A stretch of DNA of 63,670 nucleotides, counting the filler, from Hausera hauseri (taxonomy: Eukaryota): the NCBI GenBank assembly GCA_046269625.1. It is 10 parts of 10 records of this genome, joined end to end, with 100 filler letters (N's around TTAATTAATTAA, not from the genome) between each part and the next. Parts side by side here need not be neighbours in the genome. Positions count along the whole stretch, not along the records: positions 41,023 to 45,469 come from JBJURY010576672.1; positions 45,570 to 59,594 come from JBJURY010710991.1; 8 more parts are not named here. The stretch is one strand, 5' to 3'. Positions 33,584 through 60,500 of this stretch are shown here, piece by piece; the stretch's first letter is position 1; the number at the start of each line of letters is the position of its first letter. The position numbers and the translations under genes were made by a program. The notes under the pieces are model-generated. The model was not told the DNA's origin. It did not search any database and saw only the letters and a list, made by a program, of their open reading frames with translations.

Positions 33584-33584
33584 T

Positions 33585-35048
33585 TTATCTTCGTATTTTG
33601 AAAATAAGGCTGGAAAATTTGTGAAATAACTCTAATTTTTTGAGAAATGTCGTTGTGAAACGAGCACCATCATTTTCAATCAACGAACTCTCAATTTTCA
33701 GTTGTTCGAATACCATTTCAATACATTCATCTTTGACTTTGGCGATTTTAAAAACCGTTCGAAACTTATGATGTCGCTTAACAAAGAATTCATAAATTTC
33801 CAATGCGTGCCAAACTTTTCGGACGGCAACATCGATCCAGTCAGCTGTATTCCAAATACACAAAAAGAAATAGTCATCCGTTATATGCAAAAAACGCTCC
33901 AAATAATCATGAATTATATCACCATACTTTCTTTCAGCATAAATAGCTGTTATATGAAATTGGTCTTCACATTTCAACCACAACTGGTTTGTTAAAATCG
34001 TTATTGTTACTTCGGCAATATCCCCATATGTAACGTCTTTATGTTTTGATTCATTTCGAGTTACAACTGGACAGTCAATCGGAATGTATTTTGCCGTATC
34101 GTTCATTCGAACATTCAGCATTATTGTTTGACTGTTTTGTCGATTTATCGTTACTTTATCGAGACAATTTGAAAAATGCGGTGGAGGTGACGTATAAACC
34201 AAAGTTGTTAAATATTTAGATACTTTATTTAAGACATACCAACGAACGGCTCTCGTTAATTTTGGAATTTGCCATTTCTTATGGCATTTACTGCTGATTT
34301 CCACACCAAGCATTCGCGTCATAACCAACAGATTTTCGAAATTTTCATTGTTGCATTTCAATTTAATTGACATCAATACAACCGACAGAATATTTTTTGT
34401 TGCTTCAATTTGAAATTCCTCATTTTTGTGAGCTTCCATATGATTATTTAAACTGTTTTTTACGACATACCACGATTTCGAATGGCCGGTTTCGATTTCT
34501 GTTGCTTTAGGTCCAGTAAATTCAACACCAGTTGTCAATTTCTGCTTTTTAGTCGGTTGTCGGCCATATTCTTTGCAAATATTGCAAAAAATCTTGAACC
34601 CGTCGTCGATAGATTCCTTGGAAAATGTTATATTTCGTTCAATAAACGTATTGATGTTATCACATTCATCCGATGCTTTTCTCTTCTTTTTTATTTGACC
34701 GTCATTAATACCAGGTAAGGGACTGCCATTCTTCAGTGCTTCACACATTCGTTTGTATTTGTCAACTTCATTTCGTAAAATAACAATTTCCGTATCTTTG
34801 GTACCAAGGATAACCTTTAATTGCTTTGCATCATCAATATTATAAGCACTGGCACTTAAATTTTCCAAATTCAAACCACCGATAATAACCGGGCAAACAA
34901 CGTATGGATTGACAAAATTCGTACCTGCCGAATTAGTACCGGATCTATCTTTTGATATACAAGGCACGAATATTGACGACATGATTTCTGTACAACCATT
35001 CTTCTTAGTTCTAACATTCGTGTAAATCCACAGAGGCGACCTTTCATT
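33585..35048 (-). CDS. hAT-like transposase-derived ORF (zinc finger plus degenerate catalytic region), open to the contig edge
   Basis: IFCNICK…LNNHMEAH finger, FSNCLDKVT (first catalytic Asp position), CIWNTADWIDVAV (degenerate CxxH box) and GARFTT. The 22 codons upstream of the ATG at 34982 are also stop-free. Confidence 0.5.
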   Translation of the reverse strand, partial: NERSPLWIYTNVRTKKNGCTEIMSSIFVPCISKDRSGTNSAGTNFVNPYVVCPVIIGGLNLENLSASAYNIDDAKQLKVILGTKDTEIVILRNEVDKYKRMCEALKNGSPLPGINDGQIKKKRKASDECDNINTFIERNITFSKESIDDGFKIFCNICKEYGRQPTKKQKLTTGVEFTGPKATEIETGHSKSWYVVKNSLNNHMEAHKNEEFQIEATKNILSVVLMSIKLKCNNENFENLLVMTRMLGVEISSKCHKKWQIPKLTRAVRWYVLNKVSKYLTTLVYTSPPPHFSNCLDKVTINRQNSQTIMLNVRMNDTAKYIPIDCPVVTRNESKHKDVTYGDIAEVTITILTNQLWLKCEDQFHITAIYAERKYGDIIHDYLERFLHITDDYFFLCIWNTADWIDVAVRKVWHALEIYEFFVKRHHKFRTVFKIAKVKDECIEMVFEQLKIESSLIENDGARFTTTFLKKLELFHKFSSLIFKIRR

Positions 35049-36644: not shown

Positions 36645-36867
36645 CGTGGTGCCCACATCGACAGCCGCCCTCTCGTTCATTCGTTTGGGCACGGCCGGGC
36701 TTCCGCTGCCGACGCGTCGGGCACATAGGCAGGCCCCGATTTTCCGCCTCGAAAGAAGATAAAGTCAAACCTTGATAATTCGGATTATGAAAGCATCAAA
36801 GTGAATGATTCACAACATGAAACAAATGAAAATACCAATGAATGACAAGTGGTTCGATTATCAATTT
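36645..36867 (+). repeat. LTR-like direct repeat, copy 1, running into the MBOAT leader
   Basis: Closely matches 40314-40536, which begins TG immediately after a polypurine tract. Confidence 0.8.
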
Positions 36868-36985
36868 TCTTCATGCATCCAATCAAATTCGTCATGATTC
36901 ATTACATAAAATTCAGTGGATTTTTAATTCAAATCACTTTGTTGATTTTAAACCAAAATTTGTTTGTTTTTTATTTTCAATTTCT

Positions 36986-38438
36986 ATGTCTCAATTTTAC
37001 GGTGGTTCAGTTTTTCTATCACCATTATCGGACATTTTTGGGCTTCCAATTAATCAGATAAATTTCATTGTTTGTAGTCTATTGTCTATTGCACTTGGAC
37101 AAGTCATTCGACGATATGCATCCCCAAATAAAACCTCATCGAAAATTTGTGGTTTGATTAAAACCGTTTTGGGTTTGTTTATTGTTGTATTCTGTTACGG
37201 TGGTGAAGTGAAATATCTTCTATTTCAATCAGCCGTTTCCTATGTCTTTCTATTGATATTTCCATCAAGATTGGCAGCGTATTTGGTCACGATTTGGTCA
37301 TTGGGTTTTATGGGACTCGTTCATTTGTACCGCATGCATTTCGATTACGGTGGCTACACATTGGACATATCCGGTCCGGTTATGGTTCAAACTCAGAAAT
37401 TAACGAGTCTTGCCTTTAATTTACTTGCGGTTATCGGATAAAACGTGGCAATTCATTGAAAAACAAAAACCACGTAGAACACGCAGTGAAATCGTTACCG
37501 GATATTTTCAGTTTTGCCTCATATCTGTTGTATTTTCACGGGGTATTAGCTGGACCATTTGTATTTTACAACGAATACGTTGATTATTTGAATGGATACG
37601 ACAAACGAGCAATTCCTTGTTCGAAGAAACAACTATCAGCCGCGCTGACGCTGTGTGCCATTCACGGATTGTTGACCGCGTATGTGGCACCTCAATTTAA
37701 TTACATATTCGTGTGCAGTACAAATTATCAACGAATCCACATGTTCCGTGGAATAATGTTTACGATGATCTCATTTTTCTTGGTTCGACAGACATACTAT
37801 TTCGCATGGTTTATTGTCGAATCTGGGACACTCAGTGCCGGTTTGGGTTACAGTGGAAAAGACGAAAATGGTGAGCCGACATTTCCCAAAGTGAAGAATT
37901 ACGATTTTATGGCAATCGAAAGCGGAAGATGTTTAAAAGTCGTTGTTGATGGACGGAACCTTTCCACAACGAGATGGTTACGAGAAGTATTCTACGAACG
38001 ATCACCGTTGTGCTGTCGAACGATTTTGGTTTTTCTAATCAATGCATTCTGGCATGTATTCTATCCAGGGTATTACATGAAGTTTCTTGCTTTTGCGTTG
38101 TTTAAGTTTTGTGCACGAACTGTCCGACGGCAATTGCGTCCGTTATTTATGACGAATGCAATTACTCTCCAGCTTTATCACATTATTACAAAAATCTTTA
38201 CGAATCTAGCATTGAATTATGGATAGAGTCCATTTTATTTGTTGGAATTACAGTCCGGTTTATTTTCTGGAAACCGTACTATTTCGTCGGGCATTTTCTC
38301 GCAATGTTCTTTGTTGTAACACTTTATTTTCGGTCAATTATCAACGACAAAGTCAGTCTGATGAATTTTAAATTTGGTCCAAAAGCGCATTTACAATATC
38401 GACAATTTAGGGATCAGTCACAAAGAACTTTGGGTTAA
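36986..38438 (+). pseudogene. MBOAT-family lysophospholipid acyltransferase (MBOAT1/2-like) pseudogene
   Basis: NFIVCSLL, YTLDISGPVMVQTQKLTSLAFNL, VLAGPF, YYFAW and NAFWHVFYPGYY (catalytic His region). A 1-bp frameshift near 37427 and a stop at 38224-38226; no introns seen. Confidence 0.9.
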
Positions 38439-38726: not shown

Positions 38727-39715
38727 AGTGGAATTCGTTGCAAAGGCAAGCATTTAACAGCGTGCATTCAATACACCATCCTGGTGTAAAAGTTACTTTT
38801 CGTTTACTCCATCGACAAGTAATTCGGCCGTCAATGCATTCTGATGTGCAGGCATGGGTTAAGGAGTGTGTGGCTTGCCAAAAATACAAAGCAACTAAGC
38901 ACTTAAGACCACCACTGTTCCATTTTCCCAGCACATCGCGTTTCTAATCCGTGCATATCGACATCGTTGGCCGTCTTCCTCCAGACAATGGTCATCAATT
39001 TATCCTTACCATGATGGATCATTCCTCGAGATAACCAGAAGCCATCCCTCTGCGGAGCACAAATACCGACACTATAGCTGACGTTTCCATTCGCACATAA
39101 ATTAGCAGGTTTGAATTACCTCGCTTCATTATCACGGACCAGGGTCCACAATTTGAATCCAACCTGTTCAAATCCCTTGGCAACTGATTGGGGTCCATCA
39201 CATACATACTACGCCTTATCGCCACCAATCGAATGGCCTTCTAGAACGTTTCCACCGAACATTGAAAACGTCACTAAGAATTCTGGCAGAGTTCAACACT
39301 AGTTGGATGAATTTTCTTCTGTTCGTTCTGCTCGGCTGGCGGAACACTCCGTCCACTTCTACAGGATGCTCATCTACTTAAGCCTTATTCGGAGCTCCTG
39401 TCCGATCATTATTCGAACTAACCGCCCTAGACAACACTCCCACGAATGAGACGATACGGGCGGCGCAAAATTACTTCATCGAGGTCAGCAAAGATTCGTT
39501 CTGCAGTCTACTTCACAAAGACAAAACATACCCCAAGATTTGTATTCGGCAAAATTCGTATGGCTAAATAATCAAGCGCCTTGGGGTTTCCAGCCGCGGT
39601 ACCTGGGGCCCTATAAACTGATACAGCTGCACTCACACAACTCCATTATCTCTAAAGACGGCAAAGACCTTACAGTACACAATACCAACTTAAAGCCCGC
39701 TTTCCTTGAGGACGA
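38727..39715 (+). mobile_element. Decayed Ty3/Gypsy integrase
   Basis: H…HPG…CVAC zinc domain, VHIDIVG, IITDQGPQFES, SNGLLERFHRTLK, and GPY motif YLGPYKLI. Several stops. Confidence 0.92.
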
Positions 39716-40313: not shown

Positions 40314-40922
40314 TGTTGTGCCCACATCAAGCGCCACCCCCTGGCCCATTCGGTTGGACACGGTCGGGCTTCCGCTGCCGACGCGTGGGGCACATAGGCA
40401 GGCCCCGATTTTCCGCCTCGAAAGAAGATAAAGGCAAAACTTGATAATTCGGATTATGAAAGCATCAAAGTGAATGATTCACAATATGAAACAAATGAAA
40501 ATACCAATGAATGACAGGTGGTTCGATTATCAATTTGTATTGTTGTATGCTGTTATGGTGGTTAAGTGAAAAATCTTCTGTTTCAATCAGCTGTTTTCTG
40601 TCTTTTTACTGATATTTCCATCAAGGTTGGCAGCGTATTTGTTCATGATTTGGTCATTGGATTTTATAGGACCCGTTCATTTGTACAGCATGCATTTCGA
40701 TTACGATGGCTACACGCTGGACATATCCGGTCTGGTTATGCTTCAGACTCAGAAATTAACGAGTCTTGCTTTTAATTTACTTGACGGTTATCGGATAAAA
40801 CGTGGCGATTCATTGAAAAACAAAAACCACGTAGCACACGCAGTAAAATCGTTACCGGATATTTTCAGTTTTGCCTCATATCTGTTGTATTTTCACGGGG
40901 TATTAGCTGGACCATTTGTATT
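40314..40922 (+). repeat. LTR-like direct repeat, copy 2, continuing into a second, internally deleted MBOAT copy
   Basis: 40314-40536 matches 36645-36867. The sequence then jumps to the equivalent of ~37177 and follows MBOAT to the contig end. Confidence 0.85.
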
Positions 40923-41609: not shown

Positions 41610-44600
41610 AGCCATATTACCTGCATATTCCATATATAGTACCTGCAGATTCCCCATATATGCTGCCTGTATTTCATACCCTATTATACAGGGGGCCGAG
41701 GCTTGCCCTCAGGGAGGAAAGACAGCTGTTGATGCATTGTGTGGATAGAAGCCGGATATTCCATATCGACCTCCAGTATATATCCCATATCTCCAGTGAG
41801 ATCTAGGTCCAATATAGGGATGATTTGAGGATTCTCGACTTATTTGAAGTTATCATATGTCAATGGGGCGCTCATTTCCCATTCATACAAGTTGTTGGTA
41901 TGCAGGTATGATATATATGACTATTGCTTTGTCGAGTCGTATTCGGCCATATACTTGTTGTTGGCCTCACTATACCTGTGGATGGCCTGGCATATTCCGC
42001 CTCCAATGCCTCGCTCAATCATGACGATCATGTCGCAATCCTTTATGATCTGCAGCCTGACACCTGTATATCTCAGCATAGCTGCCCAACTCATCCCTGG
42101 AGCCGTAAAGAAATGAGCCGGATCCCATGCGTGGCTCTTTATCGTGACATCCCTGAAACTCTCAAAGACATTCGTCAGAAGCAGTACGTCCGTCTTGAGG
42201 TATATATCGCTGTATTCTCCTAATGTTCGGCATTGGAATGCCTGCCAGACATTCTGAGCATACTGATAGTCCTCATTACTGATATTACAGTCCGATAGCT
42301 GGTTATAAAAGCCATCCTAGGGCGGTAACGTGGTATCATCCAGTGTTTCCCATGATGTTATGTAGTCGTAGGGAAACACTCCTTTCCTTTTAACTAGGTC
42401 AAATTTAGTGGAAAAGAACCGCTTCATCTCCTTGAGTTCTTCTGCAGCAAGGTTTTTCACTGAACTGTCAAGTGAAGACGACATGAAACGGAAACTGCCT
42501 ATGAAACGAAGCCTGATTTTCCCAACATGCTTCGTAAATGTGATGTACTTCTCCTCACTATTTGGGATCACCTCAATGTTTCCTTCAGTGCTGCCCACTT
42601 CCCGAACAATGAAGTGGGAATCATAGCCACTGAGGTTGTGAAAGACTACAGGCAGATACGTACATATTTTGCAACGTAGATTGCAGTTGTTGCATGCCAC
42701 ACCTCGATATTTGCCTGAAAATGGCAATGATCCCTGACTTTATAATTATCCTTAGTGAATGATTTGGAGCACAAGTAACATGCTGTTGACTTGCGCCAGT
42801 CTTTTTGATGCTTCGACATTCTCATGTCGTCCTTATGCTGCTGCTGCATATCTCCAATCCTATTAGCCATACCTTCAAGTCGTTTCATGAAATGAGCTGC
42901 TGTGCCTGAACCCCTGAATAGAAATGGTTCACTGTCCAGTCCTTTGGCATACATGCAATATGATCAGAGCTCATGATATTGGTATGCCGTTGTGCTTCTA
43001 TGTTGTGGATTAGGACTGCAACTCTGAATTGGACGCAGAATAGCTTCAATGTCGCAATAGACAACTTTTGGGACCTTGAGCTTGTTCTCCAACTTCTTGA
43101 ATTCAATGTAGCCCTCCTTGGGAAAATCTGGCCTGATACAATAATTGTTGCTGCATTACATTTTGTGCTGTGCAAGCTTGTCCACTGCTTCATCACCGCT
43201 GAAATAGGAAAAGCATAGTTTGCATATTTCGATTCTTGTTGTGTGTTTCGTAATTTGAGATCTGACTAGACGTTCATAGTTTTTACCCACATGTAATGTT
43301 TCTTTTCTGCATCGTCTTGTAGGAGCAGATCCCTATGATCTTCCAATTCAACATCACATATTTGCAGGGGACATATAATTTATCATCATCATCCAATCCA
43401 GTGATGTTGATAGATATATTGTTGATTCGACTGAACTTCTTGACTTCATCTATGGATGGCGGAAACTTAATACGTTGGAAGTCACAGTTGTGTTGCACAT
43501 TCTTATATAGCCAAATTCGTGAAGCATTATGTTGATCCCGTACGCGTTTTGATAGAATGGCATACATGAAACACATGTTGTTATTATTATGGACATTGAT
43601 GCATGCGTTTTTCTGCCGATTCCATACAGGGAGCCCTATATATAAACTGTCCCACATATGGGAGTACTTGTGCACATACATAAGCGGTTTCTTGATGGCT
43701 GCCAGGGTCCATCCACTTTTCTTATCCTGGCCCTCCTCAGCCTCCTGCATCAGCTCTTGTGTTCCTCATGCAACCATTCTGCTATATTGGTGTTTTCTAA
43801 TATGGGCCTATTTTGAGTCTTGAAGGCCCTATTGGATTCTTCGCCATCAACATTGATGTATGTGGCCTTAGTTTCATATTCACCTTAAGGGCTTTGAGCT
43901 CAGCCATGTTGTCCTGACGTATTACCTCTGTTTCTTCCTTTGTGTATAATAGGAACTCTCGGAGGGTTGTTTAACCAGTTGCATCAATAACATATCTGCG
44001 GCATTTTCTCTTTAATGCTGCCGCATAAACTGGCCGCTGTCTTTGGCTTTTTGATTGAGCCGCTACGTCTGATGCGACTGCGCCTGATGTGGCTACGCAT
44101 GATGTGGTTGCGCCTGATGCTGCTCCGCATGATGCTGCTGCGCGTTTCAATTCTCTAATATGCTTCACAGCTGCTGCACCAGATCCAGCGTCATAATGTG
44201 AAGCAGAATACTGCAAAGCATCATACTGTGAAGCATCATACTGTGAAGCATCATTATGCTGCTCATTATAGATGGCCTTCTTCAACTTTGATTTGAAATC
44301 TGTCAAATGGGCAATATGATCTTCATAAAACTGAATGTATACTCCATCACATACAGCCTCACATCCTGGACAAATATAATACAGGATCCCCTTGCATTTG
44401 TAGCCATAGTAGTTCCGCATGTTTTCATGACAATTCTGAGGGTTGTGTAGTGCACATGTGCAATACGCGTATGAACTGCATCCTTGACTTTTTTTAGGCG
44501 TGAAAGTTATTATTGGCATGTTCGTATTTGTTTTTTCGACTTTGTGAGGGAAATCAGGTGATGTTTATGGGCATTGTAAAAGTCCTCATAATTGGTTTGG

Positions 44601-44735: not shown

Positions 44736-45725
44736 TAAAAATCAACCAATTATTTGAGGAGCACAAATAAAAACTCGCCATTCGTGGAATTAATTTTGGA
44801 AATAATGAAATATATCGCCATATCAACACACACTGCCTCGTTTATTGATTTTTAAATTTTGAATTTTTGATTATTTTCTAACATTCTAGACCACTTTGTT
44901 TTAAATGCATGTTGGCACAAAATTTAAGGTCTTCGACCAAGGTGAATCGAATGACGTCATTAGACTCTTCGAACATTGCACGCTTGACCAAGTTTTCGAG
45001 TTCGAATATCGATTTTATCGATTTCGAATAATGTATTCGAATATCTAACAGAGGATTATAAATCGCCATATATGGCTTCCTATGTGTGCGCTATCAGATT
45101 TATCGATTTCCGCATCATTGGTCTTTAAATGCAGATTTTGCTTAATTCGATTTATTAATTTTATACCTATATAGTACATTTTCATGGAATATCTTTAATG
45201 CACCTAGGGGTTTTCGGACATGGGAAATCGAATACCGTCGCCAGATTTTTCGAAAAGTTCGATATTCGATATTTGAAGGGGAAAATATTCGAATTTCGTA
45301 CATTCGACTCGATATTCGAGATCTCCATACTCGACTTCCTATCTGTCTCCGCTCAATGTGATATAGAAGTTTGAGTTCTTAGGGCAAATAAAACCTATGG
45401 GAAATCTGCCTCACTTGCACTTTGAATCGATATTATTCGAAATCCACTCGACCGATTTAAATTCTAATTNNNNNNNNNNNNNNNNNNNNNNNNNNNNNNN
45501 NNNNNNNNNNNNNTTAATTAATTAANNNNNNNNNNNNNNNNNNNNNNNNNNNNNNNNNNNNNNNNNNNNAGTCGAGATCTGATAAACTACGCAAGGCACC
45601 GCACGCAAGTGCAAACATTCTAACGAGAACGTTAGGACTTATCTGCTTAATATCATTTAAAAATTCGAGTTTCCGTATTGTTATAGTTGGGTGTTGGATA
45701 GGGCCCACCTTCAACTACTAACATT

Positions 45726-45743
45726 TGGGGACCCTAACAGGAC
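45726..45743 (+). other. Candidate primer-binding site after the LTR end (…AACA-TT-TGGGGACCCTAACAGGAC)
   Basis: CA followed 2 nt later by TGG, about 290 bp upstream of gag. Partial resemblance to a tRNA-Trp-type PBS (TGGTGACCCCGACGTGAT). Confidence 0.5.
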
Positions 45744-46011
45744 AGTTTGTACTTGCTAGACTTGACTTTTAGTGAAAAATAACGACATATTAGCGATCAG
45801 CGCTACCACATCAATTAATTGATTGCAGATTGTTGTGAAATTAAAATTTGGGATTATAAAGAAACCCTCAGTATTATAACGACATATTATTGAATTAAGA
45901 TCGAATATTGATAGACATAAGTCAGATGATAACTTAAATCTCATTCTAAACGGTAAAGAGAATATTAATTTTTGTGAAACACGTAATAAAGTTTATAGAC
46001 AAGGTAAGACG

Positions 46012-47264
46012 TTGAGTAGACGCACTTTATCTGAAACAAATTTAAGTGATACTGAACCTATTGACTTAAACGCTGTTGAGCAGCCTATTGAATCCAAGGT
46101 TCCTGATAAAAGAATTAGAACTCGTAAGGTAGTTAAGCAAAATCTTATAAACGTCGAAAATATGGTTGAGAATCAAGCAATAGCGCAAAAGTTGGACATA
46201 TTTACATTCGATTCGATGAATCTTCCGGCGTACGACGGAGACCCGGACGGACTTAATGAGGTCTGAAGGACATATAAGTTGCATGCAGAAGGTTCCGGAC
46301 TTGCATCTAACGTAATGATTAAGCGCCGGTCCTTATATTTAAAGAATTTGGCCGCTGATGCTTATAGCGAACTCACCGATGATGAAAAGGAAACTTGGTC
46401 CTCCCTGGTAGGAGCCTTGAATCGAAAATTGTTACATACTGTAACTCCGCAACAAAAGCTCATGGCTTTTCAGAATAGAGTACAACAAAGGGTGAATCGA
46501 TAACCCAATTCGCTTTTACCTTAAAGAAATTGGCAAACAGTTACGTAATCACCTTAAGGATAGCAAACATAGCCAAGGCTAAAAACGAAGCAAAACGTGA
46601 AGCCTCAGAAAAGGCAAATCCTCTAGATTTGGACGTCATGATGATGACGCAGTTAATAAACGGTATTTGGTCTAAAGACATAGTAAAGCAACTGATTCTA
46701 GCACGTCCGGAAAATTTTGATAGGACATTGCAATTGGCCCAGGACTTAGAAATGGCATTGGATAGATATGCCAGAAAGAATGACAGAAATGATAGAAATA
46801 ATGATCAAGTTGAACGAAGCGATAGAAATCGGAACAATAGAAATGGTAGACGATATAACAGGAATTATGGGGATCGGAACGAGAACCGTAATTATGATCG
46901 CAGAAACGATCGATACAGTAACCAGAATTTTGATAATAGCCGAAACAGTTTTCCTAGTAAACGAAATTATCATACAGATAAACGCATAGATGGCTCTAAA
47001 ATTTTTAATCGTCAGAACGACAGCCGAAATTACGATAATTGCCAATATGGAGACCCTAGACAGGCCCCTTCGCAACAAGACTACAAAAGAAATCCGAGCA
47101 GATCGAAATCTCCAGTGAACGAAGATGGCCCACAAAGGATCGGGAGAATTGGCAACTTAATCTGTTACATGTGCGGACAAGAAGGACATATAACGAGATC
47201 CTGTCCAAACCCGCGAAGTGTCTCGTTTGTGGAACCTAGTAAAACTAATGTAATTAAAAATTAA
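46012..47264 (+). pseudogene. gag (capsid, R/N/D-rich linker, CCHC knuckle)
   Basis: LPAYDGDP, YLKNLAADAY, QLINGI and CYMCGQEGHITRSC; internal stops. Confidence 0.85.
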
Positions 47265-50200
47265 AACTTAGAAGCAATTTACGGTGTCCGTACAGACACG
47301 GGTATGATCATTGAGATACAAGACTTACGACGCTTTTTAAAGGCCCAACCTGATACTAAAGACCCTAAAGTTTTAGTGGCTAGGAATGAATACGAGCATA
47401 AGGTACGATTATTAGAAGTTTATCACGGTCTACGCGAACCAGAAACGGAATGTGAACGTTCCATTGTCCCACCAAGGCTGAGTGATATAGCACGGAAAAA
47501 GAACGTTCCTACGATAAACAGAGTCGATCGAAACAGGAAAACCTGAGACTCCGGGTAAGGTAGATTTAGATGTAGAACCCGAGTATACTATAAAAAAGGT
47601 ATCCAAGGAGGCCGAGGCCGACGAAAAAAAGAATTTCTGGAACCACATACTTAAAATTACCAAGAATAGAGGCCGTAACCCATCGTTGAGACGAAAACGC
47701 AAGAATGGTTCGAGATCCCCAAAGATTAAAGAAAAGTCGAGCACCAAAAGAGAAACCGAAATCGCTTTGGAAATCGACGAAGTGTGCCTCGAACGTTCCG
47801 GAGATTGACCTAGTTACGCCGAGCGAAATGGATGAGCCGACGAAATCTATAAATGAGATAAACGACATATGTCCTTTACCTGCTAGTGAAGAGGAAACGG
47901 AACAAGAAGAGAAACTGGGTCCTAAAAAGTGGAAGATTAGGCGTTCGTGGAAAAATGCCGACGAATTAAAAAGAATGAGGATAAACTGCTTCAATCCAGA
48001 GGTAGTGCAACAAAATTTAGAGAAACTAAAGGCGATGAGTGAGCAAGTGGATATCTCGGGCAAAGAACAGCTGTTTGTAGAGAGATTATATGAAAAGATG
48101 AAACTATATAGTGAAGGAAAATTAAGCGAAGCTATAGATTTAGATCAGCTGGAAGAAGTGACAAAAGAAACACTAGTCAAATGGGAACACGAACTAGAAA
48201 AATGGATGAAAAGAGAGATGAAGCTTCCGGAGACGTGGAATAAAACTACCCAAGACATTGAAGATAAAGTTAACCAAGCTCAATCTTTATTAACTACATT
48301 GGAAGTCAATCCGAAATTAAAAAGAGCAGCACGTAATCTAGAGCGTGTCATGAATGAAATTAGATTTGTAACAGTCGAATGACTCAATGGAAAACCGGTC
48401 AAAGAACGAGATGCAAATGACCTAGAGATGATGGGCATAGATGCCATAGATATTCCACCCTTGATGGAAATGGTAAATGTCGCTTAAACGGCATCAAGGC
48501 AATATACAAGTCTTGAAAATCGTATTAGGATTGAAGCCGAAAAACGGTCGCAGATATATGGGCTAAGGAACAGAATTGTGCATCTAAATAACGACGAAAC
48601 ACGAAAAATAATTATGGCTTGCATCCTCGAGTTCGATGAATACAAAGACGAGTTTGACTATGCCTACCGAATCATCGATTATATTAAAGGTCCAGATGAC
48701 GAGCTAGAAGACGCTCGAAAATTGTTGAACAAAGCAATACTGGCAAAGCCAGAAATCGCTAACTAGTTGAAAGAATGGTCCGAAGTAATAACGAGGCTGA
48801 GTAAATTAGTAGCCGATCGAAAAAGGAATTTCCGGAGAGCGAACCTGCAGTAAAGAAGCGATTAGAAGACGCCCGAAATCTAGATACGATGAATGCAGAA
48901 ATTGACATCCGAACCCAATTCGAGGCATTACGCCAATTGAACTTCATGGAAAAGAAACAAGAGATGATACTAGACGATATATATATATAAGATGATCGAA
49001 GAAACAAACTTCATGCGAAAGCGAAATGTGACTTATGATTTCTACCCACGATTACGAGATGTCCGTCGGAATGGAATACGGTGGTTGACAGCCAAACCTA
49101 TCGAAGAAATCTCGATTCGAGATCTTAAAACCTTGGACTTTTGTCCCGAATATTGGTCGATCGTTGAAGAAACGGTGAAGTTCTTACACTAGCCGCAGGA
49201 ATGGATGGACGGAACGGATCAGAGACATCATATGGAACTGATTAAAATAAAGAATGACCACCACCTTAGCTTTGAGTAGATCAATTTTGTAAAAAAATTT
49301 ATTAGATGCGATAGATCCGAATTTAAAGTGTATTAACGAGATGTACGAATTAGCGCTATTTATGGCAGAAATGGCAGAAATTAGTGACGAGAAACTAAGA
49401 CAATTGCTGCAGCAGATGCAACAAGTCGAGGAAACTTGCATTAAGGCGAAACAGAAAGCGATGGGATTAGACGATCTAGCTAGAGAACTCGAAGTCTATA
49501 AATAAAAATACGTCTTTACATAAGCCGAAAAAGCTCACAAGTCACAATTCGTTTAAAGATGGCAGAGATGTCATGTCTGAACTAACGAAATATGAAGAAA
49601 ATGGGTTAATTTCCCCCGAAGAACTATGTTCGTTATTAACAATGCTCCACCAAACACCCTCTAATGGGCGATGTTTCCGAACGACGAAAATGGTCCAAAT
49701 GCAACAGAAACTACAAGAACTCAGAAAAATTACATGGACCGCAAGTGTGGATAGACCAACGGATGTACCGTCAAGGGACCATCAACTCCCGGATAACGAT
49801 AATGAAACAGAATGGGAGGCATATTTAGACGCAATGATTGCCGAGAATCCCAAAACCCTAATACTATTGGATGAAATGGAAGTATATTTTCCGGACCAAA
49901 GGTTCAACGTAGGAATGCTTCTGGACCCGGTACACACCGAAAAAGATTTAATTCAATTAATTGAACTGAACCTCACTGAAAATCAATTGAGACATCTAGT
50001 CCTACCTTAACTACGTTAGCTAGCGAAGGTACGACTTCCAGTACGGTACCTAAGCTTTTACTCAAGGAATATGCTAAAATCTTAAAGGCAAGGGCAGAGG
50101 AAATGATCCCAGTAAAGATAACATCAGACTGGATGGACGAGAAGGAATAAGAGTTTACTACGCGCTCCCTTATGAAGGATGTATTACTGTGGATAAAGAA

Positions 50201-51044
50201 CAATGGATAGGGCCCATGAGCTAAGCTATAGACTCTATTTTAGAGGAAGGATACTAGACGAGTCGGAATTATTGATAGAAGTTAGAATTATTCCAGGTGA
50301 GGTAAACCGGTTAGTGGTACCTATTGCCATCGATGAAACAAAGGAGGAGGCCATAAGAAAAGCTAAAGCAGAACAACAGGTAGGACAAATAATAGGAGTC
50401 CGAGATCCAACAGTATATTTCGAGTACCTGCAGAAAAATGAAGATAATGAACAATACGATAAGAATTTAGTACCCATAAATAGCAATGTACCTATTATAA
50501 CAAAACAGAAGCGTTCTGTCGGTAGGCCGCGGAAAACACGAGAGGAAATCGATTACAATGGAGATTTAATCAGAGTTGAGACAAATGTCCATACCGACCT
50601 TTAGTGCGGATAATGAGGAACTGAACGAACTTATGAAAGACTTGATACGAATAGTAAACCACTCTAGCCTCGGCGGTGATGTATTAGATGAGAAAGAGAA
50701 AGCCATAGCGAACGCCGCAAAGGCTATGAAAGGCCTTCGGTGTAAATTAACCAGAAGTATTCTAAGCGATGAAATGATAATCGAGAAAATTATGGTAGAA
50801 AACACCATAGAGGAATTGAGAAAAGTGTTGCTATATCTGGCCATCAGAACCAAACCGAACAGAGAAAGTGAATTTAACAAGGCTCCTTGCTTGGCAAGGA
50901 AGGCTGCCAGGAAACTGCCCCGAGAAGTGGATTGGACGAAGCTATTCGAAAAAGAAGAGCATCAAAATATATTCTTCTTCGATAACAATAGATTCGGAGA
51001 TTTGCTACGAAACGTGACTGGAAATCGCAGCGGAAATGAATCGA

Positions 51045-52900
51045 ACTGGCTAATCAATTTTTTGACCATGATGATGTTAATAAGGCAAATGGGCGCAGTC
51101 ACAGTATATGATTGTGACAAATTCAGACTTGGCCAAAAATATTCGTTAATGGACTTCGAAATGTGCGAAGATGCGAGGCCTTACAGATTAGAAACAAAAG
51201 AGAAAAGTTATATATTATATCAACAACGCGAATTACTTACATTGAACGGAATAGAATATATGTTGCGGCGATCTCGCAGCATTTTCCATTGTGGGCTGGT
51301 ACATGAATACTCATCAATAATTAAGCCAACAACCCCACTAATTCCGATGAATTTAGAGCGACAGCATTGTAAGCAAGCTAGAGAAACGGGGAGAATAAAA
51401 TGGGACGGTATGGAAATGGAAATGCAGCAAGTGAAAATAATCAGTGTATGAAGTGGCAGTAGGAAGACTGGATATGCACACCGGACACTGTCACGGTGCG
51501 GAATACGATACCGGAAAGGAATTAGGGTCAAACATCGTGGTAGTGGATTTTTACGAAACCGAAATGCGTATACAGAAAGTGATGTTTTATAGCGTTACTA
51601 AACTTTACACCGAGAACCACAAGTGCCACATTCAGGATGGCACATGCCTGTTTTGATGTTCCGTAGTAATTTGGGAACCCCCAGCCAAGACCTATTGCAA
51701 CTTTATCAGAATTAAAGAACTTAAGTTCAATGAGACGACAGGAAAACGGTATATAAGTAGCACAGAAACTAATTCTAAAACACGAGATGTAGCCGAACAG
51801 TCCACACCCACGATACTGATTTCTGATACTCATGGATTAAAATTTGTAAAAAAGGCTATGCTCACCAGATGCGACGTCGCAATGTACGCCACCAACTATG
51901 AAGCATTTTTCGTAGCCGAGACAGAAATAAACGCCAGAACGTTCAAACTCGAGACTCAGGGCATCCGGAGTGAAGACTATTTGAAGAACAGAGACGACTA
52001 TTTCTATTATAAAGGACAAGCCGGAATAGCCGAGTTATACCACAAAATGATAACAAATGACTGTAAATTGGACTATGAAATCATGAGAATTAAGCTGGCC
52101 CTGATATACGCCAATCCCGAGTTGGCATCACCAGTAATTCCGATGAAGGAGGGTGTTTTTGGACGAGTAACCGGAGAAGTCTTATTTTACCTATGAATGA
52201 GAAGAAAGACGTACCGATTAATGTGGAAGAGAAGAGGTGTATACAAGAACTTCCAGTGATATATTAGGACGTACTGAGATTAGTAACACCGATTACCAGA
52301 GTGTTGTTGGCAAACGCCACTCAACCGACAATTCTGAGAGACTGTAAAACCAGCTTAGGAGAGCAGATGTTCAGACGTAGCGAGACCGACTGGGTAAGTC
52401 TACCGAACGGCGGTATTATCGCATTACCTAGCAAGCTTACAGGAACAAACCTGATAAAAGGAATAACCGGTGATAAATTTCAAGATACAGCCGCAAAAGG
52501 TATTTACCGACCAAAAGACGTAGAGGCGTTTAGACAATTTTTCGCTTTTCCCCGCCGACGTACACATGAATTAAACAGCAATGCATACAATATTGGAGGA
52601 TTCGCGCTACCAGGCGAAATGGGAATCGTTACTTGGTGTTTGTTATAATAAAAAAGTAACTACAGAGGTAATGTATAAAGTCTGGGGAAGATTCCTGATG
52701 TTCGGACAAGCCGCGTCAGGATTTCTAGCGATATATTTCTTAATTTAACTGATAAAAGCTATAATTCAAGCAATCATAAATGGATACGAGATATTCACCT
52801 TGACCGCATTTTCGTGCAAAATTTTAACGGCTATCATTACACCCTTTAGCAAATTCCTAAAGGCTTATGAAGAGAGTAAATAGAAAACAGGTGTGGAGCG
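51045..52900 (+). pseudogene. Chuvirus-like / gB-like class III viral fusion glycoprotein (env), decayed
   Basis: Signal-like WLINFLTMMMLIRQMGA, then VYDC…YSLMDFEMC, RSIFHCG…C..ARETG, CHIQDGTC, DYLKNRDDYFY, GVFGRVTGEV, CIQELPVIY, VTPITRVLL, and C-terminal WGRFLMFGQAASGFLAIYFLI-LIKAIIQAIINGY. The motif order is the one I recall for chuviral/retroelement glycoproteins. Confidence 0.72.
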
Positions 52901-53498
52901 ACATGTTGACTACCATAATTGAAAACGTAAAAGACGCATATTTGATTACGGGCAAAAATTCATAGATAGTAAGACACGAAGAAACAATTCTGATGATGAC
53001 GAGCCTAAAGGAGGAGACGTCATCTCCGGGCCGAGCAGGCACAAAAATTACTCTGTTATGAAACTACCATTACCAATATTGCCGCCAACGTCACCCATAT
53101 ATGAAGATTGCGAGAACCAATCTATGAGCTCGTGTCAGACAGACGTCTATCGGAAGCCATTTAACCTAGAGGATCCTTACGAAGGAACAAAACGCTATGG
53201 GATATTGCGTAAGATCCACGGAACAGAGAGAACCTCGGCTCCATACTATCGATCAGCAGTCGACGACCACGGTATAATTTACTCACCTAGAATACCTAAG
53301 CCAAACGAAAGACAGTCAATATTTACCGGAAGCCGTGAAACACACCATCTCAGAAGCCAAGAAATTCAGCCGCCAGCTAGAAATCAAGGAATAAAAAACA
53401 CGAATGGCATGACTAATGAACTATACCCAATCGGAGAATTATGACATCTAATTGACCAGCCAGTCGGAACCACTGAAGTTACCATAAACGGCTACAAG

Positions 53499-56400
53499 GT
53501 GTCCACAATACGACATCCTAAAACAGCACCAAATTATTACGGTACGGTAATCAAAGGCAGGCCCTTCGCAAAGATTCAATTGGAAGATTGGGAAGTTTAT
53601 GCACTAATAGATACAGGATCTGAAAGATCACTGATAAAATATGATTCGATACCACAATTCCTACGGAAACGATTATATCCACCTCCCACGACAGACCCAG
53701 GAAGCATTGGAGCTTTCGGACAGTCGTCGAAAAGTAAATTCCGTTGGAAACCAGAAATTCACATAATGGGACAATCTTTTCACTATGAATTTTCAGTTAT
53801 GGAGCAATTGACGGATGATGTAGTGTTAGGGTGTGACTTATTGAGACAACTACCTAATATAGCAATCAATTTCAATGCCGGCAAGTTGATAAAACTTGAC
53901 CCAATAAAGGAGTTAAAACCACTAAAGACCGAAAATTTGGAGAAGTGTAGATTCCAGTGGACGAAACTATACCGCATAGAACGGAAGTACTCATATATGC
54001 CCAAATACGTCAGGATGACGATCAGCCAGTATGTTTTGAGCCGAAAGAATCGCTTAATCCAAATATTGTGCTCAGTGACGTTTTGACAAGAGTATCAACG
54101 GGCCGCGTGCCAATCCGAATAGCGAATAACGCACCCACTCCCATCAAACTGTACGCCAATACCACTTTGGGACACACGTATAGAGTCTCAGCGATTTCCA
54201 TCGAAGAAAAACCGTATAAGGGTGCCGAATTTCCACCCCATGTTGAGACTAAATTTTCACCGGAATCATATTGTCGATTTTATGAATTACTTTGCCGCTA
54301 CAGCTCAATTATCGCGAGAAACGAAGAAGATATTGGCCGCGCCAGAGCCCTAAGACTCACGATTCCGCTTAAGAAAAATCCTGGTTCCAACAAGGAAATA
54401 GATCTTAAGAATCAAAAGATGCCGAAATGGTATCCTCCTTTAAACTCATTAAGGCCAGAGATAACCAAAGAGGTTGAACGAATGTTAAAGGCCGACATAA
54501 TTAGAACAAGCTACAGATCTTGGTATTCACCAATACTCATGGTTAAGAAAATATGTACCACTGAGCACCGATTTTGCATCGACTATCGAGCGTTAAACAC
54601 GCTTATGCTGAAGGTCTTCTTCCCGTTACCATCGGTAAAGAAAGCTTTGGACAGACTCTCTGGAGCCAAATGGTTCACCACGCTCAATTTACAATCTGGA
54701 TACTGGCAAGTCGAGATAGAGGAGGAAGATCGTTACAAAACGGCATTTAAGACACACAATGGTATATACAAATTTAATGTTATGCCATTTGGGATAACTA
54801 CCGGACACACCATTTTACTCTTATGATGAATAAAATGCTAATGGGAATGGAACACACGTTTGCCTACTTAGACGACGTCATGATCGCGTCGAAAACGGAA
54901 GAGGACCATCTAAAAGATATCGAGGGTACACTTATGAGACTAGAGCAGGCTAGACTGAAACTGAATCCCAAAAAGTGCAAATGGGCTCAGAATGCTGTGT
55001 CGTACCTCGGACATATAGTAGGAGAAGGAGGATCGAAGCCGGATAAATCATTATTGAGTAAGATATCGGATTGCATGGAACCTCAGAATCAGAAGGAATT
55101 AAGACACTGGTTAGGGTTGTGTGGGTATTATGCTACTTATGTACCAGACAATGCGAAGATAAACGCACCTTTGTATCGTTTATTGAAAAAGGGGATCAAA
55201 TGGAAATGGACCGATGTCGAACAAAAGGCTTTCGACGAAATGAAAAAGGTTCTAACTAGTGAACTCGTTTTAAGATATCCCGACTTCAACTTACCGTTCA
55301 TAATCAAAACAGACGCCAGTAAGGAATGTATCGGATATGAACTGGCCCAAAAACGAGAAGACGAAGAGTTGGAGCACCCTATTGCATACGGAGGACGTTC
55401 CGTGAAGAAAGCGGAGAAGAACTATTCTGTTACGGAGTTAGAAACATTAGCCGTAAAAGAAGCACTGCGACATTTTAACGTGTATGTCTTCGGACAGAAG
55501 ATTATAATCGTTACTGACCATAAGGCAGTCACGACCTTCAAAGGTAGGGCAATTAATCCACCCTGTAGACTTAACCGGTGGATTGAGGAGATTTCACGTT
55601 ACAATATTGAATTCCAATACAAACCCGGAAATAAACATGTCGATGCCGACGCATTATCAAGACTTAAAACGAATACAAGCGCAGTTACATTAATGAGGAG
55701 AGCCCACCTCGGAGATTTAGTAGAAAGACAACGGACTCTTACACTGGATAAGGCATTAAATATTGCTGTTGAACAGGGAAAAGACAAGGTTATACAACAT
55801 ATTATCGAGTTCATTGATACCAACGTAACACCAAAGGATCATCAGTTACGGAAACACCTACGACAATATGGTCACAAATATTGCGTCGCTGGAGATTTGA
55901 AGCATGAAATTATACTACGAACGAAAAGGACGAAAATTGGTAGTCATACCAAAAGGATTGCGTTCAGAAGTACTAATGGCCAAACATGATTCGTATTTAG
56001 TCGGACACGTCGTGGAAAAAGACCCTAGAAAGAATCTTGAATAAATATTATTGGCCGAGCATTTACATTGATGTGAGAAACTGGGTGAATGCTTGCGAAG
56101 TATGCGCGACCAAACAAAGAAAAGTGAAAAACTACATCGCCGAGCTCGAGCCTGTCTACGTGCCCGATAGACCAATGCAAGCGATGTCTATTGATATTAT
56201 AGGATCATTGCCTACGACCCACAAGAATAAAAAATACATTTTGACCTGTGTAGACCGATTGAATCATTTCGTCGAGCTTACAGCGTTATTAGACCAAACG
56301 GCCGAGACCTTGGCAGAAGCGGTAGTCCGGAAAATCATTTGCAGATACGGGCCACCCGAACAAATCTAGACAGACCGAGGAAGAAACTTCACGAGAGAAT

Positions 56401-57017
56401 TATTCGACAAGATTACCAAAATTTTTGAGATTGAACGATTAACTATCACAGCTTATCATCCCCAATGTAATGGAATGGTCGAACGAATGAACGCGACAGT
56501 TAAACAAATCTTATCGACACTAGTCGCAAAAGACCAGAAGGATTCGGATGATTTCTTGGAAGGCACACAATTTGCTGGCAGAGAAGCGGTGCTTCCTACA
56601 GATTTAGGACTGATCCCATACACAACAAGAACAGAATATTTAAAACAAAATTTCGTCGAGGTATTGCAACTGAGATTACACAAGTGTTGGGCAATAGCCA
56701 AAGAATTATCTAAAGAATACCAGGAACAATTCAAGAAGCAGTATGATAAGAAGGCTAAACCACACGATCTAGAACCCGGAAATTGGGTCTACATACACTA
56801 CCCAGTAGCAAAGAAAGGCACGTCTCTTAAACTTACCAGGATAGGTAGAGGACCTTACGAAGTTACTAAGGTTACACGAACCACAGTTTATATAAATAAA
56901 AATGGCGAGGAAGAGGTCATATCAATTCAGAGAGTAGTCAAAACGGAAATAAGACCAAAAAACGCTATAATTTGCGTTAAAGCAAAACAAATAAAGAAAA
57001 GAAAACGTCGTCGATAG
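53499..57017 (+). pseudogene. pol: protease, reverse transcriptase, RNase H, integrase
   Basis: ALIDTGS…VVLGCD; RFCIDYRALN, LQSGYWQV, MPFG, AYLDDVMI; KTDAS, YSVTELETLAV, VTDHKA, ADALSR; YYWP…CEVC, IDIIG, NGMVERMN, RGPYEV. Confidence 0.95.
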
Positions 57018-58339
57018 TGACTAGACCAATATCGTATGTACAAATAGTCCTGACCTTATCGTTAATCGCTTCGTATATACCCAAAGTGAAATCGATCACT
57101 CAGACCGGAAAAGTAAAATATGCAGCAAAACGGAAAGATATCCAAAACTTACAATCACTTTGAGTAAATGATATGGATTGGAGAAAACCATGTTCATGGT
57201 TTGAAGCAAACGAACATATTCAAAGCCACGTAAAATTTCAAATAATATTTGTAATTGGGAACACGATGAGAATGTGCGATTTTCCGTACGGCGTTCATAG
57301 GAGATGTTGTCATTTGGATTTTGGACAAGCCTACGGATACAGCTTCCAAATGTTTTATTTTTATCAATTTGAGACTCAAGCCTACATAACTACGGGACTC
57401 TCAATAAGAATGCCCCAACGAAAGGACGCAAATCAAGCTAAGATGGACGAAATAATTCGAATCACGGATCCATTGAAGAGGCGCTTAGATTACAACATTG
57501 TTGGGATTCACAAGGACTTGAAAAACCAGTGTATTCGAATTGAGACCAAAATCGAACTGCCAGGAGACAGAGAAATTTCTGTCCAATTTATACCACTGAA
57601 CACTTCAATTCCTGAATCGGAGTATTGTTATTTGGTCAAACGACGACCTACTGTGTGTTGTGTGCTGCTATTAGGACAAGAGTATCAATTGCAACTCGAT
57701 TTGTACAATACGTACTCTGGAGAACCAAGTATCTATTTAAGAGAATATCGCCCAAAGAACGGAATATGGAATCTTCCGGTCCCAGCCACTACGGGAAAAC
57801 CATCCACGCCTCCGAGCACAACTCTCACTGCTACGATTGTCACTTCGGACGAAATGCTAGGAAGCATGCCGGTTAAGATTTTGGCAAAAAGTAATAGAAT
57901 CCTATTTTACGCTGAGGAAACGATAAATCAAGACGTAAAAATTGAATGTCGCACCCTGCACACCAACTAAGTTGTGGTCCTGAGAAAGAATAGTCAAGAA
58001 ACTGAATGTAGGTCATTACAACCACAACATAATTATATAGTCCGAATTACTGCAAAGGGTAAAAATCCTAAAACTTTCACAGTCCAAACTTTTGACAACA
58101 AAATTGAAGTAAGGCGGTATAAAGATCTTAGTACGCAAAATGTGTTCACCACGGAAAGTTTTATTGAGAGAGACAATTTATGGATAATAGTTATATTTAG
58201 TTTGTCAATTTTTGTTCTTGTCATAATAACCGCGATGATTTTTCTAGTTTCCAAAAATTGTAATAAGCGCTGCAAAAATCGAAAGGGAGATAAACGGGTA
58301 AAAAGACACCGAGACGGACCTTATAATAGCATAACCTAA
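57017..58339 (+). pseudogene. Type I membrane protein with an FN3-like module, immediately after integrase
   Basis: Signal-like YVQIVLTLSLIASYI at ~57035-57080, a Cys-containing ectodomain, a P/T-rich stalk, SLQPQHNYIVRITAKG (FN3 LxPxxxYxVxVxA pattern), TM LWIIVIFSLSIFVLVIITAMIFLV and a basic tail. ORFs 57173-57970 and 57974-58339 are in one frame, split by a single TAA. Confidence 0.6.
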
Positions 58340-58439
58340 CAACGACAGATCGGGTTATCCTATCATCAGACAGAGAAAATGTTTTGTTTCAAAATAATGA
58401 TGTCTTAGGATTAACCTTTATTTTTATTTCAGCAGAGTA

Positions 58440-59594
58440 AGTATAGCAGAGAAGGCGAAGAATCCAGCAGTCCATTCCAATTTCGATATCTATGACTTCT
58501 TACAGCAGCATGTCACGGTCCTCAAACCACTATCCATAAGTTTATGTAGACAAATTGGAGAAAATATGAAAACTCACAACTATCTCGAGTTCAACAAAGA
58601 GAGTAAAATACCAAACGGGCTAAAATGGGTTTTAGAAGAGAATCGACTGGTCCGATTATTTGCCATGCGAAGCCCAAAGGATGTATGTGCATACCTATTA
58701 AAGGATCTAATGTCGCTGATGGAGAAATTCAATACAGGATCGTAGGACAATCCTGGAGTACACAAATGGGATAGCAATGGAAATTGAGTACTTACGAGCT
58801 ATATTGCTATAGCCTCATGAATTATGCTTTGGAATTCAGGATCGCCAACCTTCCGACCAAAATCATGATCGAGATGACGTGGCGGACAGAGGTAATGAAG
58901 CCACTGCTACCGTTGCTATATGTACAGAAACCATCGGAAGATGAGATACAGCAGAATGGGGAATCTTATAGATTGGTCCCAGATGGCCGGAATATCCGGA
59001 TATTATCCGTAAACTATGGAGAAAAAGATGACGGATGGTACGTTCCGATTGAGGTCTCTATTAGAAATACTAATAGAGAAGAGATTGAAAATAAAGTAAT
59101 CGCACCTCGAGCTAGGATAAAGGATACCTTCCCTGACGTCACCGGAATTGCGAAGGTACAGCTCGAAAAAGGAAAAGATTTCTTGGAAATCCAAGAAGAT
59201 ATAAGCCATTGTTTCTATTGATATATTGTTACCGGATTCCGAGTACACGAAGCGTTAGAACGACTAGGAATTAGGCAAGAATACATTGCCGGAATTCGAG
59301 AATTGAGCCGAAACCCAGCAGTTGTGAGCCAGGTAGAAAATACGTTAATGCTGATAAGAGGTTGTTTACTTCCGTCAGCATCGCGCGAATCGCAATTTAA
59401 GATGATGCTAGAAGCCATGAATGGCGAACGATACAAATTCTCTAAGCTGATCACAGCAAGTCAACGGACCAAATTTATAAAGGATATTTATGATTCGTTA
59501 CGATGGGATCACGAGTGGAAACACAGAAATTACATGCAGAATGCGATATCCGACAACAATCCCAAGAACCTAATACAAAAATTCCGAAAAGGAT
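58440..59594 (+). pseudogene. Further unknown 3' coding region of the large retroelement
   Basis: Co-oriented ORF pieces (58784-59221, 59303-59594) with the same composition, running off the contig. Confidence 0.45.
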
Positions 59595-59694: not shown

Positions 59695-60500
59695 TTCAAC
59701 TTGTAGTAGTCCTTTTCGAACTTTGCACAAGCTGCGGCTCGTTTTTTTTGAATTTCCCTCAATGTATGCCTTTAATATCGGCGTTTGGTTGAATTTGATT
59801 CCTGCAGCTATGTGACGCTTACACCGAGCAGCATGGAGACCTGTGGCAGACGCCAATGGACCACGTAATTCAGCTTCGGTTCTTGCGTCATGAAGAGTTT
59901 CTTAACCTTTGAGCCGCCGAGCGGACATTGGCTGATTGGTGTGACAGGCAATTGGTCCAAAGCGTCATGCGACTCATCGGGTATCACGAGATCAACTTCC
60001 ATCAGGTACCCGAATGAGCTGTTTTCTGCCGTGTCTACTGTCGGTAAATTTTCCAATATTGTCTCCAAATCTTGTTTGTCCATTAATCATTCAAATGAAC
60101 CGTACGGCAAGGGTTGCGAAAGCTCCCAGCCATACAGATTATTAATGTCAATGTACAGTAGTGATGTGGTATTATCATCACTGGAAGCATCAGTAGCACT
60201 AACGTGGTGCTTGTTGACAAATGTCATGCGGCCACGAATACAAACATCAAACAGTCGGTACCTTTCTGGGTCTTGGAACAGGTCAATGTCCCGGTTCAGT
60301 GATATCAAAGCCGACGCCCAACTCATTCCCGGTATGGAGTAAAAGTTGAGCGGCTCCAGCCTATCTTCCGCCAACGCCTTAGTTCAAAATATCTGAAACA
60401 CGTCGGCCAGCAAGTACACGTCCAGTTTCAGATAGTGGAGCATGTAATCCAATAGACTTCTGCAGCCTAGCTCTGACCAAGATTCCTGTGCTTTGCAATA
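59695..60500 (-). mobile_element. Third pPolB relic (same family as 19760-22400), internally deleted
   Basis: AEDRLEPLNFYSIPGMSW, LLYIDINNLYGW, GYLMEVDL and KLFMTQEPKLNYVVHWRL, near-identical to peptides at 20921-21591. Confidence 0.88.

Follow-up and report, generated by a model that had tools for sequence, protein, structure and literature searches.

The window analysed here, a 63,670-nucleotide stretch of the Hausera hauseri assembly GCA_046269625.1, consists of contigs strung together via N/TTAATTAATTAA/N spacers. One of these contigs (JBJURY010710991.1, positions 45570-59594 of the window) carries a decayed element of the Ty3/gypsy type. Its gag, gB-type env, pol and fibronectin type III (FN3)-like module likely formed one giant polyprotein, predicted to be threaded through the endoplasmic reticulum (ER). 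We consider it likely that the contig is one element of this polyprotein lineage, and it most probably belongs, as one decayed copy, to the gag-env-pol elements of the Burro/NERV-like kind. What appears undescribed is the recurring FN3 membrane module that is fused to the rear of integrase, along with an exonuclease-like open reading frame (ORF) at the 3' side. The copy in the window is dead, and its interest is the architecture that it has in common with intact relatives.

Gene order and single-ORF relatives

A Pfam scan of 23 pieces bore out what a preliminary description of this DNA had read from the sequence, namely gag with a CCHC knuckle, an X region without a family match, a glycoprotein and protease, reverse transcriptase, RNase H and integrase (PR-RT-RH-IN) in this order on one strand. 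Relatives of the envelope glycoprotein (Env) were searched for with one Env piece, its stop being read as the letter X, which gave 56 matches. The closest of them encode Gag-X-Env-PR-RT-RH-IN in one ORF of 2,600-4,800 residues. Among the 13 best of the 56, nine run on into PR/Pol in the same ORF and four are glycoprotein-only. The family PF24664 was found in all 25 of the 56 that were scanned, with Pfam PR/Pol domains behind the glycoprotein in 10/25 and ahead of it in 0/25, and a CCHC knuckle lies N-terminal to the glycoprotein in 6 of the 16 proteins examined. A glycoprotein is present in two of the 120 Pol matches listed, P0009 with env-pol order and P0086 with pol-env order.

Of 36 metagenome loci, L001 and L002 carry Env-PR-RT-RH-IN-FN3 and a transmembrane (TM) segment as a single ORF, which has 3,703 aa in L002 and no fewer than 3,426 aa in L001. 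Gag is present in L002, which is collinear with the window over Gag, Env, PR, RT/RH and IN, while L001 is cut at its 5' end. Integrase lies ahead of env in 6/36 loci, and the remainder are without same-strand pol. A scan of viral contigs with P0009 gave no relative among 16 pattern matches. The recurrence of the gene order in independent sequences was found in the polyproteins of the relatives and in L001 and L002, with one ORF taking the place of the separate genes that had been described. No stop is present in the relatives at the gag-X junction or at the integrase-FN3 junction. Because the closest glycoprotein relatives encode Gag-X-Env-PR-RT-RH-IN as one ORF, the contig most likely holds one element and not a nest.

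Several polyproteins have further domains. P0177, P0133, P0127 and L001 carry two to six aspartic-protease-like domains; P0177 (4,844 aa) has ankyrin repeats and a C2H2 finger, and L001 has an additional signal-FN3-TM module between two protease domains. P0124, an animal-type retroelement polyprotein, is filed under a Flavobacteriaceae metagenome bin and is most likely from a mis-binned contig.

The envelope glycoprotein

The broken env of the window (51045-52900, plus strand) was delimited by PF24664, by homology to the relative P0123 and by hydropathy. It consists of a signal-like segment (~51050-51082), an ectodomain and a TM segment (~52710-52787). The Monjiviricetes fusion glycoprotein family PF24664 matched in three collinear pieces (profile positions 5-132, E 9e-9; 250-378, E 2e-8; 411-509, E 0.02), and P0123 aligns with the window Env over its length at 25-38% identity. 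A structure model of P0123 (pLDDT 78.6) returned chuvirus G at the top among viral models (E 8e-42) and herpesvirus gB at the top in the PDB (E 2e-14, TM-score about 0.33). The window Env is a predicted class III (chuvirus/gB-type) fusogen, by a fold match that was made on P0123 and carried over by homology; the chuvirus-like fusion glycoprotein named in the preliminary description agrees with both comparisons.

In a quick LG+G4 tree of Env, the window groups with 13 polyprotein Envs, as opposed to 13 stand-alone ones, with a support of 100 and a warning of long branches. When the piece from the N-terminus of Env was used for a word-based search, nothing was found among 89 candidates. At 51804 the window Env has a motif with the core YATNY, compared by eye, and the pattern built for it fits 7 of the 74 proteins compared. 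The cytoplasmic tail or linker of Env (52901-53555) has stops as its sole interruptions, and three-frame translation places the Env TM segment, the tail and the protease all in one frame.

Gag and the X region

The gag (46162-47264, plus strand, broken) encodes a capsid-like N-terminus, an N/R/D-rich linker and one CCHC knuckle, the latter matching zf-CCHC (PF00098) at 47163-47210 with E 2e-4. In tblastn, the Gag of P0138 matched with E 1e-7, its residue 1 being aligned to 46162, and that of L002 with E 6e-9. A gag with CCHC is present where it had been placed, at 46012-47264, but homology begins at ~46132-46162 and not at 46012.

The X region (47265-51044, plus strand) is a charged, broken coding stretch without a family match, delimited by its frames, the Pfam scan and the least-cost reading. 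The 3.8-kb stretch begins beyond a single stop but still in the frame of gag, and by its end it is in the frame of the Env signal. It is positioned like the variable X of the relatives, which contains ubiquitin-like domains in some of them. Such domains are present in L001, L002, P0133, P0141 and P0124, and ankyrin in P0177. A least-cost reading of X by itself costs 28.5 against 53.5-74.5 in 20 shuffles, but its reverse strand, at 31.0, is almost equally open, and X is therefore less securely coding. From the frame shared by the Env TM segment, tail and protease, the opening of X in the gag frame and the ORFs of the relatives, we infer an ancestor with a single Gag-X-Env-Pol ORF.

A ubiquitin-like profile found nothing above control on X. 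The candidate ubiquitin-like domain that was seen by eye at ~50100-50300 was dropped, the profile giving 6.4 bits there, 8.3 at best elsewhere in X and 5.0 in the control.

Pol

The broken pol (53556-57014, plus strand) comprises PR at 53556-53852, RT at ~54557-55020, RNase H at 55207-55602 and integrase at ~55910-57014. Its Pfam domains follow in the order RVP, RVT_1, RT_RNaseH, Integrase_H2C2 and rve, and it is collinear with the polyproteins of the relatives. PR-RT-RH-IN with a gypsy-type RNase H and an H2C2 integrase is the pol order of Metaviridae (Ty3/gypsy). No Pao-type Pfam family was found at E<=0.1 in the 23 pieces, and env precedes PR, which argues against Belpaoviridae and Anakin.

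Pol trees were constructed from database matches alone, none of them a named reference for gypsy, BEL or copia. The env-pol relatives form a Pol clade in them, with nine rows at 96 in the tree of 131 rows and seven rows at 99 in that of 27. The five best integrase matches of the window (among 34) are env-pol relatives.

A second membrane protein behind integrase

A second type I membrane protein was recognized by profile and hydropathy at 57017-58339 (plus strand). It is composed of a signal-like segment (57038-57070), a Cys-containing ectodomain with an FN3-like module at 57872-58075, a TM segment (58172-58264) and a short basic tail. The preliminary description listed nothing past integrase, and overlooked both this membrane ORF and the exonuclease-like ORF at 58433-59594. 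In the relatives, the frame runs on from integrase into a hydrophobic, signal-like segment, behind which lie one or two ~100-residue modules, then a TM segment and a short tail; the FN3 protein of the window lies one frame off integrase, and is fused to it in the relatives. A second FN3 module, considered in the window ectodomain, had no profile support.

The profile, built from eight modules of five relatives, gave 31.8 bits at 57872-58075, with 9.1 as the next best among 852 window tiles. Leave-one-out best scores of the five relatives that built it are 13.9-30.3 bits, and two modules were found at 26-28 bits in P0308, which is outside the profile. An FN3-like module flanked by hydrophobic segments is present behind integrase in six of the eight polyproteins reaching past integrase (P0124, P0127, P0177, P0308, L001 and L002), a count that omits P0126, P0140 and P0178, which end earlier. 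Foldseek with the L002 module returned FN3 domains as top rows (best E 9e-5), and FN3 domains were also returned by VIA (Z 9.3, rmsd 6.0, 91 aligned). The P0124 tail in Atlas scored 0.91 to fn3 clusters, with low recognition. The nearest look-alikes of the module are receptor FN3 domains. The L002 module is predicted to form a seven-stranded FN3 sandwich, to which the window is tied by its profile match.

An exonuclease-like ORF at the 3' end

A splice-acceptor-like pyrimidine tract (58400-58432, plus strand), ending in CAG at 58432, precedes a 3' accessory ORF (58433-59594) that is cut by the contig end and is DEDD (RNase T-like) exonuclease-like at 59000-59350. Both L001 and L002 are followed by an RNase T-like ORF, and relatives match PF00929. 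A profile of the L001 and L002 exonucleases gave 23.7 bits at 59000-59350, the next best being 5.8. In tblastn the L002 exonuclease matched at 22% identity over 103 aa (E 2e-4), and that of L001 gave no match. The exonuclease-like piece of the window has no Pfam family match and does not preserve the first acidic catalytic motif, which L001 and L002 retain.

The 3' ORFs of L001 start at 10617 and 12241 and those of L002 at 11375 and 12169; in each locus one is exonuclease-like and the other coiled-coil-like by eye. Three of these four starts read AG/ATG and one AG/ATATG. With the acceptor-like tract of the window, we infer that the 3' ORF may be expressed by splicing. A short motif that by eye tied 58401-58745 to the N-terminus of the exonuclease ORFs of the relatives was abandoned after the profile gave no support.

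State of the copy

The span 45570-59594 is exactly one entire contig, bounded by N44-TTAATTAATTAA-N44 spacers. The parts all lie on the plus strand with no internal long terminal repeat (LTR), as had been described, but since the span is the whole contig between spacers, the absence of an LTR or a target site duplication (TSD) is uninformative. Because the contig ends inside the element, 14 kb is a minimum element length. At the contig start (45570-45745) a candidate 5' LTR end with CA at 45722-45723 is followed by a primer-binding-like site starting with TGG at 45726, both found by eye; the window has no tRNA gene for checking it.

The least-cost reading of 46156-58336 contains ~18 stops and 17 frame changes. 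It costs 60.5 on the plus strand, 127.5 on the reverse strand and 176-211 in 10 shuffles. These ~35 breaks are distributed over all domains, the catalytic ones included.

Proposed mechanism

The model below builds on the part order and the hydrophobic segments observed in the window, and on the same parts lying in one uninterrupted ORF in the relatives. From a single genomic RNA, Gag-X would be translated in the cytosol, until an internal signal directs the class III ectodomain into the ER lumen. The Env TM segment would return the chain to the cytosol, with PR-RT-RH-IN suspended on the Env tail. A second internal signal would then send the FN3 ectodomain into the lumen, where it would be anchored by the final TM segment. 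We hold this topology, which follows from general rules of membrane protein biogenesis, to be somewhat likely. The chain may be cut by signal peptidase and by the protease or proteases of the element itself.

Tethered to the membrane in this way, Pol would enter the particle in a ratio of about 1:1 to Gag and Env, and not as a rare Gag-Pol frameshift product. The membrane-threaded polyprotein would bring Gag, Env, Pol and the second surface protein to one budding site. Budding particles would display the fusogen and, as a second surface protein, the FN3 protein, the latter most likely as an attachment or host-receptor-mimicking partner. Spliced RNAs may give the 3' accessory proteins, such as the exonuclease-like one.

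Relation to known elements

Nematode NERVs reportedly have a continuous gag-env-pro-pol ORF. The gag-env-pol order, which the preliminary description took to be new, is already in print (PMC6431247; PMC13524379). Of its reading, it holds that the element is of Ty3/gypsy type and that a class III env stands between its gag and pol, an order known from Burro and from gB-env gypsy elements.

Burro (GYPSM1), the planarian giant gypsy, has env between gag and pol as in the window, in frame in a polyprotein of 4,873-5,140 aa, and is also alike in its long variable Gag-to-Env region and its accessory ORFs; it carries Ub/SUMO-like, ankyrin and apoptosis domains as well (PMC6431247). The relative P0177, with its 4,844 aa and ankyrin repeats, is Burro-sized. 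A further likeness to planarians is that the YATNY core, compared by eye, occurs in the Env table of PMC13524379 only in two Schmidtea mediterranea rows. Unlike Burro, the window has no BIR, BCL2, MATH, ankyrin or dUTPase match in the pieces scanned, one CCHC knuckle instead of two or three, and a Gag-to-FN3 span of ~4,000 codons. No exonuclease is named in the Burro section of PMC6431247.

GAG-ENV-POL gypsy elements with gB-type env occur in Nematoda, Bryozoa and Platyhelminthes and are not monophyletic (PMC13524379, citing Sacco 2022). The 'ancient errantiviruses' of this paper resemble the window in Ty3/gypsy pol, gB-type env and the position of env ahead of pol; its survey is limited to three core ORFs, whereas the window adds parts past integrase from a divergent animal host. 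The words 'FN3', 'exonuclease', 'polyprotein' and 'Burro' are absent from its main text, and none of the main texts of PMC6431247, PMC13524379 and PMC5408684 contains 'fibronectin'. Among the papers listed in literature searches there was no report of an FN3 module in such elements, which Sacco 2022 on nematode NERVs, Grohme 2018 or supplements may mention.

Anakin, a BEL/Pao element with a chuvirus glycoprotein (PMC7642597), and pol-env gypsy elements have a chuvirus-like glycoprotein of the PF24664 family in common with the window. In contrast to Anakin, Pol in the window is gypsy-type and env lies ahead of it. The integrase-then-env order usual in pol-env gypsy elements is that of the 6/36 loci and of P0086. 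In an insect set, there was no clear gypsy capture of chuvirus glycoproteins (PMC10084718), and a paper on Troyka (PMC12440569) had no bearing on the element. The Juno and Vesta LTR elements of bdelloid rotifers have a DEDDy exonuclease as ORF3, and are thus alike in a 3' accessory DEDD-family exonuclease ORF; the exonuclease replaces env there, whereas here it is additional to env and a second membrane protein (PMC5408684).

Alternative explanations

Several observations weigh against one element encoding one polyprotein. The window copy has no continuous ORF, and continuity is borrowed from the relatives. A repeat comparison within the contig found no second or internal LTR, hence no LTR pair, and neither L001 nor L002 has a pair. 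X shows no significant similarity to the X of the relatives in tblastn. Pairwise comparison of the window tail with the tails of the relatives was not significant (E>0.1), the module being found by profile alone; the seven-stranded L002 model (pLDDT 68.9, 5 sequences) is of modest quality, the tail of P0128 is of another kind than FN3, and P0009 lacks a tail. In BLAST, the best RT/RNase H matches of the window are sequences other than the env-pol relatives, and in three of three free searches (131, 35 and 27 rows) its Pol sits on a long branch that falls outside the env-pol clade. When the window Pol was constrained with seven relatives, the tree was 3.9 log-likelihood units better (approximately unbiased (AU) test, p-AU 0.585), so that the clade is neither rejected nor demonstrated, and the window Pol could not be placed firmly with the env-pol relatives. 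No contig of the run X1 among the pieces listed spans the whole element, and this run (0.38 of words) is possibly not independent of the window. In favour of one element, X1 contigs cover 30/30 bins, with a summed depth of 1,595-47,070 that is not a copy number, and the best-supported joints (best 15 of 119) have a depth of <=33. Most X1 contigs show a likeness of 85-95%, in keeping with a multicopy family that has diverged.

A high-copy repeat assembled into short contigs, the lack of a listed X1 piece spanning the element and the place of Pol outside the clade in free trees could all follow from a chimera, in which nested or adjacent elements or a mis-assembly put the glycoprotein beside an unrelated pol. 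Such a chimera is very unlikely: Gag, Env, Pol, the FN3 module and the exonuclease-like ORF match L002 in the same order and strand, one frame is common to the Env TM segment, tail and PR, and no internal LTR is present. The long Pol branch may also indicate one element that acquired its pol by recombination with a different gypsy lineage, or a deep lineage of its own in which the env-pol order arose convergently, as would be in line with GAG-ENV-POL elements not being monophyletic (PMC13524379) and with P0009, in which env precedes pol but the Env is a different one and an FN3 tail is lacking. However, the AU test does not reject the clade, the constrained tree is the likelier one, the best integrase matches are relatives and the branch is lengthened by decay, and we regard a foreign or convergent pol as unlikely. 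That some breaks are programmed, by read-through of a stop after gag or as a separate FN3 ORF, would make the product not strictly one polyprotein; the single in-frame stop behind the CCHC knuckle and the start of the FN3 protein in another frame right at the integrase end would suit it. With ~35 breaks across all domains, catalytic ones included, and neither junction interrupted by a stop in the relatives, this is quite unlikely.

More evenly balanced is the question of where the FN3 protein acts. Herpesvirus gB requires partner glycoproteins, which would favour an attachment partner. Lineages whose Pol is only 35-42% identical to that of the window have retained the module, in every case as signal-FN3-TM directly behind integrase, and this points the same way. 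Against this stand the variation of the module in number and place (the additional one in L001), its absence from 2/8 relatives and the receptor FN3 domains that are its nearest look-alikes; these would fit captured cargo that stays off virions and is displayed by the host cell, where it would serve as a receptor decoy or modulate adhesion. It would then be comparable to the apoptosis and ubiquitin domains of Burro, whose additional domains have been interpreted as host-meddling cargo (PMC6431247). A role as such a decoy is a fair possibility short of even chances, and an attachment partner in preference to a decoy may be entertained at the same level; host-cell decoy and surface attachment or receptor mimicry are about as likely as each other. 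It is likely, on the predicted features of the protein, that it helps particles to attach to, or to manipulate, cells. With these alternatives weighed, a single element with a polyprotein ancestry is preferred for the contig.

Other contents of the window

Contigs in the window need not all come from one organism. One of them (22789-30653) consists of a 67-68-bp satellite in >110 copies. Decayed pieces of family B DNA polymerase, which we take to be Polinton-like, are located at 41921-43765 (minus strand), 59808-60383 (minus strand) and 20512-21331 (plus strand). PF03175 matched 42320-42739 only (E 6e-5), with no match in the other six polymerase pieces scanned, and the segments 20884-21331 and 60026-60492 are 72-78% alike.

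A long uninterrupted host NDST frame (13008-15335, minus strand) shares 37-43% identity, along the greater part of the frame, with orthologues from insects, fish, molluscs and mammals without favouring any of these groups, a divergence pointing to a possibly fast-evolving animal host. An MBOAT acyltransferase region occurs twice on different contigs (36646-38226 and 40315-40922), 91-98% identical. A frame of ~960 aa (30698-33631, minus strand) has weak matches to topoisomerase subunit A, inositol monophosphatase and ubiquitin (E 1e-5 to 6e-5, all below the cut-off), and is possibly a mosaic inside a mobile element. Ordinary gypsy fragments of other elements lie at 3760-4692 (minus strand), 18251-19315 (minus strand) and 38735-39291 (plus strand).

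Implications

By analogy with known viruses, we tentatively suggest, as a rather doubtful extension, that the window copy may represent a widespread invertebrate endogenous retrovirus lineage that would make its whole virion from one membrane-threaded polyprotein, with Pol between two anchors and packaged via Env. It might pair a gB-like fusogen with a captured FN3 attachment or trigger protein, as in herpes- and paramyxoviruses, and use spliced 3' accessory RNAs, as in complex retroviruses. LTR elements normally make little Pol, which is packaged as Gag-Pol. Pol fused behind Env and ahead of a second membrane protein would imply another assembly route and another stoichiometry. If the reading is true, the occurrence of a gB-type fusogen together with a conserved FN3 protein on the surface would be relevant to the way in which class III fusogens carried by retroelements locate and enter cells, a question on which the cited surveys are silent because they are limited to gag, env and pol.

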